The notes beneath the pieces were generated by a model, which worked only from the letters and a program-made list of their open reading frames with translations, did not search any database and was not told where the DNA came from. DNA of 4,557 bases, taken from IMG/VR virus record IMGVR_UViG_2531839232_000006, positions 1-4,557 of that record. One strand, 5' to 3'. Below, piece by piece: positions 1 through 4,557 of this stretch (within the stretch, counting starts at the first letter, position 1; each line of letters begins with the position of its first letter). Made by a program: the position numbers and the translations under genes. The DNA comes from a virus (lineage: Duplodnaviria > Heunggongvirae > Uroviricota > Caudoviricetes).

Positions 1-60
1 ACCCAACCGACGGTTTACCTGTTGGATGTAAGGTTAACACATCAAATGCGCCGGAGTTGA
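1..60 (+). CDS. 3' end of an upstream gene (partial, runs off the left edge); possibly the Cro/YdaS-like partner of the following ydaT-like gene
   Basis: Frame 1 is open from the window edge to TGA at 58-60, 3 nt before the ydaT-like ATG at 64. Only 19 codons are visible (…TQPTVYLLDVRLTHQMRRS*), so no identification is possible. Frame 3 is also open here, so even the frame is uncertain. Confidence 0.25.
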   Translation, partial: TQPTVYLLDVRLTHQMRRS

Positions 61-74
61 TTCATGAAAATCAA
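57..74. promoter_or_regulatory. Perfect inverted repeat TTGATT-catgaa-AATCAA (6+6 bp arms, 6-bp spacer) spanning the ydaT-like start codon; candidate operator for the YdaT/CII-like regulator
   Basis: Read directly: TTGATT at 57-62, spacer 63-68, AATCAA at 69-74; the ATG at 64-66 lies in the spacer. As I recall, the published recognition site of CP-933P YdaT is TTGATT-N6-AATCAA; I cannot verify that here. This is the only perfect copy in the window. Confidence 0.5.
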
Positions 75-489
75 GCATGAACACATCCGCATGGCGATGA
101 ATGCCTGGGCGCATCCGGACGGCGAAAAAGTACCGGCTGCGAAAATTACCAAAGCGTATTTCGAGCTGGGAATGACGTTCCCGGAACTGTATGACGACAG
201 CCATCCGGAAGCCATGGCTCGCAATACTCAGAAAATTTTCCGCTGGGTGGAGAAAGACACTCCTGATGCGGTTAAAAAAATTCAGGCGTTGTTACCAGCG
301 ATCGAAAAAGCGATGCCGCCTCCGCTGGTGGCCCGAATGCGCAGCCACAGTTCCGCTTATTTTCGGGAGTTGGTAGAGACGAAGGAACGGCTGGTGAAAG
401 ATATTGATGATTTCGTTGCATCAGCGATCGTTCTGTTCGATCAGATGAATCGTGGTGGCCCGGCAGGAAACACTCTGGCTGTGCATTAA
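64..489 (+). CDS. ydaT: YdaT-like prophage regulator (functional analogue of lambda CII), 141 aa
   Basis: ATG at 64 with GGAG at 53-56 (7-nt spacing); stop TAA at 487-489. The N-terminus MKIKHEHI… and the size match my recollection of the Rac/CP-933P YdaT family. Position immediately upstream of a replication module fits the cII slot of lambdoid phages. Confidence 0.75.
   Translation: MKIKHEHIRMAMNAWAHPDGEKVPAAKITKAYFELGMTFPELYDDSHPEAMARNTQKIFRWVEKDTPDAVKKIQALLPAIEKAMPPPLVARMRSHSSAYFRELVETKERLVKDIDDFVASAIVLFDQMNRGGPAGNTLAVH
324..331 (+). other. Chi octamer 5'-GCTGGTGG-3' (RecBCD hotspot motif) inside the ydaT-like gene
   Basis: Exact octamer read at 324-331 on the + strand; I found no reverse-complement copy (CCACCAGC) in the window. 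Activity depends on the host being E. coli-like. Confidence 0.5.
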
Positions 490-502
490 TTGGGTAATAA
501 AT

Positions 503-1012
503 ATGAGTAATGACAAAAAATTGACACTGAGCGTTTACGAAAACAGTCCGCACATCTGGCGTGGCGGTTTATCTGATGTGGAGCTGGCAGAGTGGTTGAT
601 ACATAAAGCTAATGCGCTGCTCTGGCGTTTGTCAGCCAGAGAACAGCGCAAGGAAACCAGAATAAAGCTGGCTGATGCAGAAGCGTGTGCCGGGCTTATT
701 GAGGATTATACAAATCTTGGTATTTCTTCAGCAGAGAGTGATCCCATTCAGCCTCTGAGCAGGGAGTCAATCCAGCACGCTGGTTGTATGGCACATCTTG
801 TAACTGCTCGTCAACATGAGGTGGGTATTGGATCACTTCCGGCGGGATATTCGCTGATTCCAGAGCTGGTTGAAGCAAGAAAATCAGTTCAGAAAAAGAG
901 AGATGACGCACTTCAATTATTGAGAGAGCACTATGGCGCGATACCAGAATGCGAACAGCGTCGATACCCTGAAGGTTATGAATGGATGCAGTCTCTTTTT
1001 GAAGTTCGCTAA
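503..1012 (+). CDS. Hypothetical protein, 169 aa, function unknown; extra gene between the cII-like gene and the replication initiator
   Basis: ATG at 503, 13 nt after the ydaT stop, with only a weak GGGT upstream; stop TAA at 1010-1012. Co-directional with the operon and E. coli-like codon choice, but several rare AGA/ATA/AGG codons. No motif I recognise. The six-frame ORF begins at GTG 452, which would overlap ydaT by 38 nt and is less likely. Confidence 0.55.
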   Translation: MSNDKKLTLSVYENSPHIWRGGLSDVELAEWLIHKANALLWRLSAREQRKETRIKLADAEACAGLIEDYTNLGISSAESDPIQPLSRESIQHAGCMAHLVTARQHEVGIGSLPAGYSLIPELVEARKSVQKKRDDALQLLREHYGAIPECEQRRYPEGYEWMQSLFEVR

Positions 1013-1016
1013 TCAA
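999..1016. promoter_or_regulatory. Degenerate second copy of the operator-like inverted repeat (TTGAAG-ttcgct-AATCAA, 10 of 12 arm positions, same 6-bp spacer)
   Basis: Read directly at 999-1016, overlapping the stop codon of the 169-aa gene at the start of the 217-bp gap before rep. Only a partial match, so it could be chance. Confidence 0.2.
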
Positions 1017-1229
1017 TATGTCGAGACGAAGGTATGTTTCGGCGCGCAGCCAGGCTCTGTAATCCGGGAGCATTTCGGGGCTGTTACACCAGCGGTTTGT
1101 TGCTGCAACATTTAATACATGAGCCTGATAAAGGCTTTTCAAAAAATACATGTCGAACCTCCTCTGGTTCTGTCGATTGGGAACCACAGATTATATCCGG
1201 AGGAAGGTTCGGCACCAGATGAGGTAGCC

Positions 1230-2321
1230 ATGCGTGATTACGCAAAAGTTTCTCCGCGATTCTGGCTGGGAGAAACGGGGAGAGAACTTAGAAAGGCGGG
1301 TGCAGAAGCGCAAGTTGTTGCTTTTTACCTGATGACATCCCCTCACGCAAATATGCTGGGTTTGTATTACCTGCCAGTTTTATACCTTGCTCATGAAACC
1401 GGGCTTGGTCTGGAAGGGGCTTCAAAGGGGCTTAAAAGGGCTGTTGAAGCTGGTTTTTGTAGCTATGACCATGATGCAGAGATGGTCTGGGTCCATGAAA
1501 TGGCAGCCTGGCAGGTTGGGGAAACGTTGAAGCCTGGCGATAACCGTTGTGCAGGTGTCAGGAATGAGTATGCATCATTACCTGAAAACGCTTTTCTGTC
1601 AGTGTTTTACGACAGATATAAAACGGATTTCCATCTGGATGTGAGGCGGAATAATAGCCGAAATTCGGTAAGGGGCTTCGAAGGGGCTTTTAAGGGGCTT
1701 CGAAGCCAAGAACAGGAACAGGAGCAGGAGAAAGAACAGGAACAGGACAAAAACACTATGGTTCATGGCAAAAAAAACACCACGAACCAGGCAGGGGATG
1801 TTCAGACCGTCAATCCTGGTCAGCCAGCAGGCACGACACCGGAAGCCGATTCGGGCGCTGTGCAGCAGGTGATGACCGCAGGGTCGGAGCAATCACACCA
1901 ACTGCAGCAGCCTGAAGCCGATTCCGCCATTCAGCGGGAAGCCGATCGGGTAGTCCCGGAAAGCACCGGGCAGTCTGTGGGACGAGTGGATTATCCGGAT
2001 GTGTTCGAACAGGTCTGGCGGGAATACCCGTTGCGTGCTGGGGCAAACCCGAAGAAATCCGCTTTCAGTGCCTGGAAGGCCAGATTGCGCGAGGGGGTGC
2101 CACCAGAGACCATGCTGGATGGTGTGAGGCGTTACGCGAGATACCTGGCGGCGACCGGGAAAGCGGGAACGGAATTTGTTCAGCGAGCGACGACGTTTTT
2201 TGGGCCGGACCGGAATTTTGAAAACCCCTGGTTGCTCCCGGTAAGCGGCACGAACAACCAGCGTTGTGTGAATCATATTTCTGAACCGGATACCGAAATT
2301 CCGCCGGGATTCAGGGGGTGA
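1230..2321 (+). CDS. Phage replication initiation protein: N-terminal DNA-binding domain, acidic QE-rich linker, and DnaT-like (primosomal protein I-like) C-terminal domain; 363 aa
   Basis: ATG at 1230 preceded by GAGG at 1221-1224 (5-nt spacing); stop TGA at 2319-2321. The C-terminal tail …ISEPDTEIPPGFRG closely matches the C-terminus of E. coli DnaT as I remember it (…SEPDSQIPPGFRG). It is followed 6 nt later by a DnaC homologue, mirroring the host dnaT-dnaC operon. The alternative start at ATG 1119 has no SD and adds 37 rare-codon-rich residues. Confidence 0.85.
   Translation: MRDYAKVSPRFWLGETGRELRKAGAEAQVVAFYLMTSPHANMLGLYYLPVLYLAHETGLGLEGASKGLKRAVEAGFCSYDHDAEMVWVHEMAAWQVGETLKPGDNRCAGVRNEYASLPENAFLSVFYDRYKTDFHLDVRRNNSRNSVRGFEGAFKGLRSQEQEQEQEKEQEQDKNTMVHGKKNTTNQAGDVQTVNPGQPAGTTPEADSGAVQQVMTAGSEQSHQLQQPEADSAIQREADRVVPESTGQSVGRVDYPDVFEQVWREYPLRAGANPKKSAFSAWKARLREGVPPETMLDGVRRYARYLAATGKAGTEFVQRATTFFGPDRNFENPWLLPVSGTNNQRCVNHISEPDTEIPPGFRG
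1414..1443. repeat. Iteron-like direct repeat cluster A: AAGGGGCTT at 1414-1422 and 1425-1433, plus imperfect AAGGGCTG at 1436-1443, 11-bp period
   Basis: Read directly. The 11-bp period makes the copies fall in all three codon phases of rep (encoding EGA, KGL, KRA), which argues the repeat is selected at the DNA level. Confidence 0.55.
1670..1707. repeat. Iteron-like direct repeat cluster B: three perfect AAGGGGCTT copies at 1670, 1681 and 1692 (exact 11-bp period), ending in the 12-bp palindrome GGCTTCGAAGCC (1696-1707)
   Basis: Read directly. The copies again occupy three different codon phases (encoding RGF, EGA, KGL). Five perfect copies of a 9-mer in 4.5 kb is far beyond chance. Confidence 0.6.
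1708..1786. other. Purine/A-rich tract next to iteron cluster B: (GAACAG)-type hexamer repeats and an A8 run (1770-1777); candidate DNA-unwinding element of an origin embedded in rep
   Basis: The 14-mer GAACAGGAACAGGA occurs at 1710-1723 and 1734-1747, and the top strand is almost all purine, encoding the QEQEQEQEKEQEQDKN linker. The iterons-then-A-rich layout inside the initiator gene parallels lambda ori inside gene O. Confidence 0.35.
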
Positions 2322-2327
2322 TGTGGC

Positions 2328-3074
2328 ATGAAAAACATTGCGGCAGCCGGGGTTCTTGAACGTATTCGCAGACTTGCACCACAGGCGTCGGTTCCACCGT
2401 ACCGGACGGTGGAGGAGTGGCGGGAATGGCAACTTGCTGAAGGACGAAAACGCAGCGAGGAGATTAACCGCCAGAATCACCAGTTGCGGGTGGAAAAAAT
2501 CCTGAATCGTTCGGGCATCCAGCCTCTGCACAGCAAATGCTCGTTTGCGAATTATCAGGTGCAGAACGACGGGCAAAAATACGCGCTGAGCCAGGCCAAA
2601 TCCATAGCTGACGAACTGATGACCGGGTGCACGAATTTTGTGTTCAGCGGTAAAACCGGCACCGGGAAAAATCACCTTGCAGCGGCGATGGGTAACCGGC
2701 TGATGGCGAAGGGGCGCAGCGTGATTATCGTCACCGTGTCTGATGTCATGAGCGTGTTGCATGACAGCTACGACAACGGCAAATCCGGGGAAAAATTTTT
2801 ACAGGAGCTTTGCAGTGTTGATTTGCTGGTCCTGGATGAAATAGGCGTTCAGCGGGAGACGAAAAACGAGCAGGTGGTATTACACCAGATAATTGATCGC
2901 CGGACAGCATCACTGTGCAGTGTCGGGATGTTAACAAACCTGAATCATGCCGCAATGAGTACACTTCTTGGTGAGAGGATTATGGACCGCATGACCATGA
3001 ACGGTGGTCGATGGGTGACGTTTAACTGGGATAGCTGGCGTCCAAATGTCAGCAATATGAGGGTTGTGAAGTAA
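2328..3074 (+). CDS. dnaC: DnaC-like replicative helicase loader (AAA+ ATPase), 248 aa; prophage paralogue of host DnaC
   Basis: ATG at 2328 with a G-rich SD at 2314-2320; stop TAA at 3072-3074. Walker A GKTGTGKN is encoded at 2649-2672 and Walker B LLVLDEIG is present (about 2822-2845). Sequence is near-colinear with E. coli DnaC across the NRSGI…CSF…NY and FNWDSWR regions. Confidence 0.95.
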   Translation: MKNIAAAGVLERIRRLAPQASVPPYRTVEEWREWQLAEGRKRSEEINRQNHQLRVEKILNRSGIQPLHSKCSFANYQVQNDGQKYALSQAKSIADELMTGCTNFVFSGKTGTGKNHLAAAMGNRLMAKGRSVIIVTVSDVMSVLHDSYDNGKSGEKFLQELCSVDLLVLDEIGVQRETKNEQVVLHQIIDRRTASLCSVGMLTNLNHAAMSTLLGERIMDRMTMNGGRWVTFNWDSWRPNVSNMRVVK

Positions 3075-3095
3075 TTTTGTCCGGAGGAAATTTTA

Positions 3096-3812
3096 ATGGA
3101 AACCGTATCTGACGCACTGAAAGCACTGAAAAAAGCCTCTTCACATGTGGTGGCAGCTCGCCTTGGAATTAGTCGTGAAGAGGCTGTCAACGAACTGTGG
3201 AAACTGAAACGCCGTGGAGAAGCGGATAACAAGGGGGCGATATGGTGGCTGACTCAGGCTGGTGAAAGTGAACCGGTGTCACCGGTACCGAAAGTGACGG
3301 CGCAAATGCTGACAGAGGCGATTGAACAACATGGCCCACAAACGGCGGATGAACTGGCATTGATGTTCGGAATTACCTCCCGCCGGGCGAATTCATCGCT
3401 GGCAATGGCAATCAGCAAAGGGTGTCTGATTCGCGTGAATCAGGATGGTAAATTTCGTTACTGCATACCGGGCGTTGATTTACCGGCAGAGCCGAAAGCA
3501 GCATCCGTAGCTGAAACGGAGGGTAAAGCCCTTCCTCAGCCAGCTGGTGTTGCGTTACCAGTCCAGGAAACGGCTGCACAGGAAGAAATTAAAACAGAAG
3601 CGGTGGAGGACATTGTGAAGTTGCAGCAATCGTTCACTGAAGCGAAAGCAGATGACCTGATTCTACCATCGCTGCATGTGGCTAACCGCGAGCTGCGCCG
3701 GGCGAAAAGTAATGTTCAGAAGTGGGAGCGAGTCTGTGCTGCGCTACGGGAACTGAACAAACACAGGGATATTCTCCGGGATATTACCGCCACCAGAGAG
3801 CAGCAGCGGTGA
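3096..3812 (+). CDS. Hypothetical protein, 238 aa: two tandem winged-helix-like repeats followed by a Pro/Ala-rich linker and a C-terminal coiled-coil-like region; possibly a DUF1627-type prophage protein
   Basis: ATG at 3096 with GGAGG at 3083-3087 (8-nt spacing); stop TGA at 3810-3812. Internal repeat by eye: residues about 3-56 and 68-126 share the pattern L..A…(A/E)L(A)..(G)I(S/T)..A…L…G. The family name is from memory and unverified. Confidence 0.75.
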
Positions 3813-4126
3813 GTGGCTGGAAGAAGTGGCGCTGGGCTGAAATCCTGATACTCCGGCAGTGTGCGGGAACGATGAGAGTCGAAAGCATCGGTTATCTGAT
3901 TGGCCGTAGTGAGTCAGCCGTCAGGACGAAAGCGCGGGAACTGGGTATCAGCATGATGTTACGGGGTGATTATCACCAGTCAGCCAAATGTTCACAGCGT
4001 GATATTGAGCTGGCGTGGCAACTGCATCAGCGTGGTGTACCCCGACGGGAAATTGCCGAAAAGTTTGGGATGAAGTTGGGCGCAGTGAATAACTACGTTT
4101 ATTTCGACAGGAGGGTTCAGGAGTGA
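3809..4126 (+). CDS. Small putative DNA-binding protein, about 105 aa, with two HTH-like repeats (the first resembles the GcrA N-terminal / sigma-70 region-4 type of HTH)
   Basis: GTG at 3809-3811 overlaps the upstream stop TGA at 3810-3812 (GTGA junction); stop TGA at 4124-4126. Repeat 1 is [41 protein letters not shown] and repeat 2 is [32 protein letters not shown]. The alternative ATG at 3872 would cut off the first helix, and the six-frame start at 3722 lies inside the upstream gene. Confidence 0.6.
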
Positions 4127-4425
4127 GGGTGAGGGTTTATATCGCCGGTCCGATGACGGGATATGAAAATTTTAACCGCGAGGCATTTCACAAAACGGAA
4201 GAGGTGCTGAAACGGGAAGGGCATACCGTTTTAAACCCGGCAGTACTTCCGGACGGGCTGACTCAGCCACACTACATGGATATTTGCATGGCAATGCTCC
4301 GTTGCGTGGATGCGGTTTACATGCTGAAAGGCTGGCAGCAGTCGGCAGGTGCAGGGGCTGAGCTGGCACTGGAGGAGAAACCGGGCCATGCGGTGATTTT
4401 TCAGGAGGTGGGCAGTGAATATTGA
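4123..4425 (+). CDS. DUF4406-like small protein (nucleoside 2-deoxyribosyltransferase-like fold), 100 aa
   Basis: GTG at 4123-4125 overlaps the upstream stop TGA at 4124-4126 (second GTGA junction), with AGGAGG at 4109-4114 (8-nt spacing); stop TGA at 4423-4425. The N-terminal VYIAGPMTG motif and the later GW..S.GA..E block are what I recognise as characteristic of the DUF4406 / NDT-like superfamily. An alternative GTG start lies at 4129. Confidence 0.8.
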   Translation: MRVRVYIAGPMTGYENFNREAFHKTEEVLKREGHTVLNPAVLPDGLTQPHYMDICMAMLRCVDAVYMLKGWQQSAGAGAELALEEKPGHAVIFQEVGSEY

Positions 4426-4557
4426 CCCGGCGATAACGATTGATATGGCCCTGAACGCCGGCCTGGCACTTCTTGGTTATTTCTACATTATGTTCTGCAG
4501 CGGACGATGGCTGTCACTGTTGTTCATGAAAAAATGGAATAAACGCCGTAAGCAGGA
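4415..4557 (+). CDS. 5' part of a small putative membrane protein (runs off the right edge)
   Basis: GTG at 4415 with AGGAGG at 4403-4408 (6-nt spacing), overlapping the DUF4406 stop by 11 nt; an alternative ATG lies at 4445. The frame is open to the window end and encodes VNIDPAITIDMALNAGLALLGYFYIMFCSGRWLSLLFMKKWNKRRKQ, with a roughly 25-residue hydrophobic stretch followed by a basic patch. It is absent from the supplied ORF track, presumably because it is truncated. Confidence 0.4.
   Translation, partial: MNIDPAITIDMALNAGLALLGYFYIMFCSGRWLSLLFMKKWNKRRKQ

Follow-up and report, generated by a model that had tools for sequence, protein, structure and literature searches.

A YdaT operator spanning the start codon of a prophage ydaT gene, and the leftward promoter predicted beside it

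The window analysed here is a stretch of 4,557 nucleotides, corresponding to positions 1 to 4,557 of the Caudoviricetes record IMGVR_UViG_2531839232_000006 in IMG/VR. It opens within the 3' end of a cro/YdaS-like gene (3..80, plus strand, frame 3, with its TGA stop at 78-80), which overlaps the following gene, ydaT (64..489, plus strand), by 17 nt. At this junction lies a perfect inverted repeat (57..74, assigned to neither strand), in which direct reading gives TTGATT at 57-62, CATGAA at 63-68 and AATCAA at 69-74, the two arms being exact reverse complements of one another. The 6-nt spacer contains the ATG (64-66) that opens the open reading frame (ORF) of ydaT, and the GGAG Shine-Dalgarno sequence of this gene, read directly at 53..56 on the plus strand, abuts the left side of the repeat. 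A previous sequence-only reading had reported this repeat with the ydaT start codon inside its spacer, as the letters bear out, but had also placed the stop codon of the upstream gene within the left arm. The latter was a matter of the wrong frame, as the TGA at 58-60 terminates only a 28-aa ORF in frame 1, and the true cro-like gene traverses the entire palindrome before stopping at 78-80. In many relatives, the upstream gene instead terminates at an ATGA overlap within the spacer.

The whole of the upstream gene can be seen in a 99.9% identical Escherichia coli O157:H7 locus (L001), where it is a 90-aa helix-turn-helix (HTH) ORF (5808..6080) annotated as a 'transcriptional regulator'. The 90-aa protein matches PHROG 35 (E 4e-28), and its PTDGLP motif is common to homologues in other loci. 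To the left of the sequence corresponding to the window, the same O157:H7 locus carries a divergent HTH repressor gene, followed by genes for a RelB/ParE-type toxin-antitoxin pair, a layout that is also that of paaR2-paaA2-parE2 in prophage CP-933P, itself from E. coli O157:H7. Positions 1-3209 of the window are 99.9% identical to a prophage found in several O157:H7 genomes, and none of the complete E. coli genomes searched covers at least 80% of the window; hence the right part of the window belongs to a different mosaic. The high identity to the O157:H7 prophages stops at 3209, with divergence (3210-4557) beginning within the DUF1627 gene, inside which there is, judging from this alignment, a second mosaic joint.

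Two further features of the window lie between ydaT and that joint. Across 503-1187, two long ORFs on opposite strands overlap, each of which matches a curated family: 503..1012 on the plus strand corresponds to PHROG 8304 (E 4e-120), and 696..1151 on the minus strand, the one annotated by RefSeq, corresponds to the 'ECs1072 family' (NCBIfam NF033230, E 2e-30). One of these two is probably a shadow ORF. Further right, within the DnaD-like replication-initiator gene (1230..2321), there are five exact copies of AAGGGGCTT with an 11-bp period, in two clusters at 1414-1440 and 1670-1705, a count that was reached in none of 200 shuffles; these are followed by an array of GAACAG hexamers at 1710-1755. 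By analogy with lambda O, the AAGGGGCTT repeats look like origin iterons embedded in an initiator gene.

The 141-aa product of ydaT is predicted to be a CII-like transcriptional activator of the POU-type HTH class, and the protein that binds the palindrome. Its sole match among Pfam families is PF06254 (YdaT_toxin, E 1.2e-9), and it also matches PHROG 163, the 'CII-like transcriptional activator' family (E 4e-46), as well as both of the solved YdaT structures (PDB 3c4r and 8bt1, E ~1e-83). It is 86% identical to the crystallised YdaT of CP-933P, and ~31% identical to that of the Rac prophage. The residues contacting DNA have been identified as E21, R53 and R60 in CP-933P YdaT, and H56/R57 in Rac YdaT (PMC9986795, PMC11879457). 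The first three of these are retained in the window protein, as is the complete recognition helix, ARNTQKIFRW, and R60 is invariant in an alignment of 26 family members. When aligned to 8bt1, residues 15-50 and 52-61 are identical, leaving A14V and M51L as the only N-terminal differences.

The site these residues contact has been characterised in two related prophages. EMSA, DNase I footprinting, ITC and SAXS have been applied to the tetrameric CP-933P YdaT, whose HTH domains are of the POU type; the 25 bp that it protects at the ydaS/ydaT junction, termed the operator OM, include 5'-TTGATT-N6-AATCAA-3' (PMC9986795). This published motif confirms the match of the arms to the YdaT recognition sequence stated in the sequence-only reading. 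The correspondence extends beyond the arms, as window positions 53-80 are, base for base, the reverse complement of the OM oligonucleotide (PMC9986795 Table S5), on which the DNase I footprint and ITC with CP-933P YdaT were obtained. Only one strong YdaT site was found in CP-933P; at higher protein concentrations, weaker sites flanking OM fill, and the footprint spreads to ~95 bp (PMC9986795). One of these, 'OL', which is protected in CP-933P only at the higher concentrations (PMC9986795), has a counterpart inside the window's ydaT gene (93..118, assigned to neither strand), which differs from the published oligonucleotide by 1 mismatch in 26. No counterpart of the 'OR' oligonucleotide, located in the CP-933P ydaS gene, was found in the window, as the upstream gene differs from CP-933P ydaS.

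In the Rac prophage of E. coli K-12 (locus L082), the equivalent 'YdaT-box', ATGATTCATGAAAATCAA, is footprinted over the ydaT ATG; YdaT raises leftward transcription 29-fold, along with the expression of racR, and mutating the box removes this activation (PMC11879457). Further targets of Rac YdaT are operators between racR and ydaS, and the promoter of the host gene rcsA (PMC11879457). The window palindrome satisfies the YdaT-box formula, 5'-(T/A)TGATT-N6-AATCAA-3', without mismatch. Although the Rac and CP-933P proteins are only ~30% identical, each recognises the other's site in vitro and in vivo, with CP-933P YdaT cross-activating the Rac box (PMC11879457). As the window protein is 86% identical to the latter activator, it very likely binds the box at 57-74. 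The element is therefore not new: it is an already characterised YdaT operator, the equivalent of OM. In CP-933P, a leftward PRE933P-gfp reporter that is otherwise silent is switched on by YdaT (PMC8630535).

The conservation of the box was assessed at 220 loci encoding YdaT relatives with 27-100% identity, from sources including IMG/VR and GTDB genomes. Besides the window type, these covered the Rac type (31%), a distant type (~27%) and two types in between. The peptide patterns by which most loci were gathered contained the N-terminal MKIKHEHI, which inflates the apparent conservation of the right arm, but leaves the left arm, the flank and the -10 unaffected. As 26 diverse YdaTs had no conserved stretch, contigs were scanned by N-terminal peptide only, which yielded 13 loci; scans with P0167 and P0159 returned no relatives. 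Two of the loci (L271 and L281) lie on metagenome-assembled contigs labelled Collinsella sp. and Candidatus Nanosynbacter sp., yet carry E. coli-type ydaT loci (92% and Rac-identical, respectively), and these labels are likely due to binning contamination.

The box has no mismatch at 70 of the 220 loci, one at 125, two at 24 and three at a single locus. Columns 2-6 (TGATT) and 13-17 (AATCA) are essentially invariant, whereas any base occurs in column 1, A or G in column 18, and the spacer is variable. The box begins 7 nt before the start codon (offset -7) at 203 of the 220 loci, and in most junction classes it is preceded by GGAG or a similar purine-rich stretch (GGGG, AGGA or AAGA). The sequence further left falls into at least 24 unrelated families among the first 190 loci and 35 across all 220, these families being not fully independent of one another. 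Phages become homologous to one another from 53-59 onwards, exactly where the left arm starts, the cro-like genes to the left of this point being unrelated. Hence the left arm is retained despite the upstream genes having nothing in common, and cannot be conserved for coding reasons. In the right arm, the third base of codon 2 of ydaT is A and codon 3 is ATC in every case, while codons 4-8 vary synonymously (AAG/AAA, CAT/CAC, GAA/GAG, and ATC, ATT or ATA for the isoleucine at codon 8). The box and ydaT travel as a single recombination module, whose left boundary coincides with the box. There are 24 distinct junction sequences among the 80 closest loci, and three phage records match the window over 53-87 only, an island consisting of the box and the first codons of ydaT.

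The distant subfamily (L284-L300, ~27% identity) separates the box from the start codon altogether. In these loci, ydaT mostly starts with GTG and encodes a different N-terminus (VEQSI...), and the box, CTGATT-N6-AATCAA, is found 32-46 nt upstream of the start. As the box persists when detached from the start codon, it is the box that is conserved, and its overlap with the ATG elsewhere is incidental. The sequence-only reading had proposed that homologous prophages be aligned to look for covariation of the arms: the arms are indeed conserved across the 220 loci, but as sequence, rather than through covariation.

A second element is retained on the left side of the box, at a fixed distance. In 34 of the 35 upstream families, the minus strand carries a TAnnnT hexamer whose first base is 21-23 nt past the box, compared with a mean of 2.8 families, and a maximum of 10 in 2000 trials, when the flanks were shuffled. 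Over the first 54 positions past the box, no other 3-nt window scores above 5, except the two that overlap the TAnnnT window. For example, this -10 reads TATGAT in Rac and TACAAT in CP-933P. The distant subfamily has TATATT or TAATAT, and keeps the spacing of 20-21 nt to the box. The extended TGn motif accompanies 8 of the 10 hexamers matching TATAAT at 3/6 positions, 6 of the 18 matching at 4/6, and none of the 6 matching at 5/6; this concentration of TGn on weak hexamers is how real promoters would be expected to compensate.

In the window, the predicted extended -10 is TGtTAACCT (31..39, minus strand), with the TG at 39-38 and the hexamer at 36-31. TAACCT begins 21 nt past the box, after a 20-nt gap, and matches TATAAT at only 3/6 positions. 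Hence the sequence-only reading, which saw no strong -10 hexamer 20-30 bp to the left, was correct as to strength, but a weak hexamer with an extended TG is present at the expected place. Setting this hexamer at -12 to -7 predicts a leftward start at around position 24 (22..26, minus strand), which would centre the box (65.5) near -41.5, with the box occupying -50 to -33, and its promoter-proximal arm covering the -35 region, in a class II-type geometry. Simple sigma-70 consensus scans of window positions 1-1300 and of L001 5650-6250 found no promoter; as an activator-dependent promoter is expected to escape such scans, this outcome is uninformative, while offering no positive support either.

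The published reporter constructs bear on where the activated promoter lies. The PRE933P-gfp fragment, as bounded by its authors' primers, is only 120 bp long, extending 18 bp to the right and 84 bp to the left of the box; therefore the YdaT-responsive promoter must adjoin the box. This assignment disagrees with two published ones, as OM has been placed downstream of PRE933P, or as containing its start (PMC9986795), and the promoter activated in Rac has been assigned to PracR4, ~190 bp from the box (PMC11879457). Nevertheless, the spacing between box and -10 is fixed despite unrelated flanks, and even where the start codon is detached, which argues that a proximal class II-type promoter is the general target of YdaT. 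It is this conserved spacing that is the new part of the present work, and it represents a modest refinement of a known element.

Together, these observations favour, with a probability of roughly 0.8, the palindrome at 57-74 being a high-affinity YdaT operator that activates an adjacent, leftward, repressor-directed promoter. YdaT would be produced from the rightward early transcript, and bind the palindrome as a tetramer, using two of its HTH domains of the POU type, thereby activating an otherwise silent leftward promoter directly beside the box. This promoter would have no usable -35, relying on the TGtTAACCT at 39-31 of the minus strand as its -10, with the centre of the box ~41.5 bp upstream of a start near 24, as for a class II activator. 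The transcript would run antisense through the cro-like gene towards the divergent repressor and linked toxin-antitoxin genes just left of the window, and would act in the role of the lambda pRE transcript, establishing or maintaining repression. The repressor gene itself is outside the window, and known from related loci; in L001 it is ~325 nt to the left of the predicted leftward start. Binding to the exact sequence of 57-74, and box-dependent leftward activation, have been demonstrated in related prophages, from which we infer that the same occurs at the window locus.

The alternative with the best claim to survive, although improbable, is that YdaT acts from the box at a distance, stimulating a leftward promoter 150-200 bp away inside the cro-like gene, in the manner of Rac PracR4. 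It is to PracR4, ~190 bp from the box, that YdaT-dependent activity was assigned (PMC11879457), and the second, free pair of DNA-binding domains in the YdaT tetramer could bridge two such sites. Yet the spacer between the PracR4 hexamers (L082 1483-1488 and 1456-1461) measures 21 nt, far from the optimum, whereas a minus-strand -10 matching consensus at 5/6 positions, TATGAT, is present 20 nt past the Rac YdaT-box (L082 1652-1657; NC_000913 1420651-1420656). As the Rac reporter also held this proximal hexamer, it cannot distinguish an adjacent promoter from a distant one, and the assignment of the promoter that YdaT activates in Rac may be wrong. Furthermore, the YdaT-responsive CP-933P reporter has just 84 bp to the left of the box, and activation at a distance leaves the 20-22 nt between box and -10, fixed in 34 of 35 families, unexplained. 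This suggests the 190-bp "activation at a distance" assigned in Rac merits re-examination.

There is similarly little probability that the box is mainly a repressing operator, with YdaT blocking rightward transcription into ydaT and the replication genes, whether as autoregulation or as a roadblock. The box does span the ribosome-binding region and start codon of ydaT, and YdaT has been termed the equivalent of a 'repressor', with a footprint that grows to ~95 bp as the protein concentration rises (PMC9986795). However, expression of Rac ydaT is the same whether or not YdaT can bind the box (PMC11879457). In addition, the distant subfamily, with its box 32-46 nt from the start codon, keeps the -10 spacing but not the overlap with the ATG, which argues that the link to the promoter is the conserved feature. 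A repressing role could nevertheless coexist with activation.

Far less probable is that the inverted repeat functions as an RNA hairpin presenting the ydaT AUG in its loop, thereby tuning translation, or coupling it to that of the upstream gene. Although the 6-nt spacer does hold the AUG, and ydaT is overlapped by the upstream gene, the predicted fold of positions 40-95 leaves the repeat unused, with a z-score of -0.65, and the hairpin was rejected on this basis. It is also at odds with the conservation of the arms as sequence, rather than as mere pairing, with the outermost pair varying on one side without compensation, and with the retention of the box sequence where the start codon is no longer inside it.

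Equally hard to credit is that the palindrome arose by chance, or as a by-product of the conserved N-terminal peptide (MKIK) and ribosome-binding region: as an anonymous 6-N6-6 palindrome it is unremarkable, there being two in the window against a mean of 1.0 in base-shuffled versions, and its right arm does fall within codons 2-4 of the conserved N-terminus, but the published 12-nt motif, matched perfectly at 57-74, is expected only ~2e-4 times per window, making a chance match very unlikely, the left arm is non-coding for ydaT and conserved across unrelated upstream genes, the synonymous positions of the right arm are frozen while their neighbours vary, and the identical sequence has been footprinted (PMC9986795), which effectively refutes this explanation.

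Other sequences resembling the box are also present in the window, where three matches to the motif with up to two mismatches are found, compared with 0.30 expected. One is a second perfect palindrome, CTGATT-CGCGTG-AATCAG (3426-3443), inside the DUF1627 gene. This contains the YdaT-box core, TGATT-N6-AATCA, of which there are two copies in the window against 0.02 expected, a number reached in none of 200 shuffles. It is unchanged in 80 of 80 DUF1627 homologues, all of which are at least 86% identical, and the DUF1627 variant of O157:H7 lacks it; no -10 was found at the spacing typical of the box. It is conceivable, but unlikely, that a single YdaT tetramer bridges 57-74 and 3426-3443, looping the 3.4-kb replication module, or else that 3426-3443 is a further target of YdaT, for which lambda offers a parallel, in that CII also serves pI and paQ. 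Another candidate, TTGAAG-TTCGCT-AATCAA at 999-1016, differs from the YdaT-box at two positions, and is followed on the minus strand, 20 nt past it and hence at the spacing of the main box, by TAACCT (973-978). This was discounted as probably a chance occurrence, as both the box and the TAACCT degrade in one diverged variant, represented by 3 loci.

This regulatory layout is most similar to that of CP-933P. The 28 bp around the box are identical, the site is likewise at the junction of a cro-like gene and ydaT with the ATG in its spacer, the activators share 86% of their residues, and the OL site is retained with 1 mismatch; in addition, related loci place an HTH repressor with a RelB/ParE-type toxin-antitoxin pair in the neighbouring immunity module. 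Conversely, the cro-like gene upstream in CP-933P is unrelated, and its OR site and strong TACAAT -10 are absent from the window, in which the predicted -10 (TGtTAACCT) is weaker, and one base nearer the box, and in which the upstream gene crosses the box, stopping at 78-80. Rac differs from the window by only one base in the box (ATGATT-CATGAA-AATCAA), with the same spacer containing the ydaT ATG; the activated promoter in Rac was put ~190 bp away (PMC11879457), whereas the present comparison favours the TATGAT 20 nt from the box. The regulatory layout of this prophage's immunity region can be fixed as the same switch as that dissected in CP-933P and Rac, made up of a cro-like gene, ydaT, the YdaT-box and a predicted leftward promoter directed at the repressor gene.

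The resemblance to lambda pRE extends to several levels. Firstly, the gene for the activator is immediately to the right of cro. Secondly, the site overlaps the start of the activator's own gene. Thirdly, the lambda site covers the -35 region of a weak promoter pointing left, an arrangement that the predicted geometry would reproduce in the window. Fourthly, the lambda transcript opposes cro and supplies the repressor gene, as the transcript predicted here would. However, the lambda CII site is a direct repeat, TTGC-N6-TTGC, which does not occur within the window, whereas the site at 57-74 is an inverted repeat. The window activator has no homology to lambda CII, PF06254 being the only Pfam family it matches, and the POU-type domain and tetramer architecture of YdaT are unlike those of CII (structural papers including PMC9986795). 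The analogy with pRE drawn in the sequence-only reading is therefore upheld by the PRE933P-gfp reporter of CP-933P and the box mutant of Rac, but the likeness is functional, and not one of homology.

In its arrangement, the predicted promoter instead recalls the class II promoters of unrelated bacterial activators. The palindromic dimer site would be located ~41.5 bp upstream of the start, replacing a usable -35, and paired with a -10 or extended -10. Sites for activators such as CRP or FNR are centred at -41.5 in class II promoters. The YdaT family is unrelated to these proteins, and the geometry predicted at this locus is derived from hexamer spacing.
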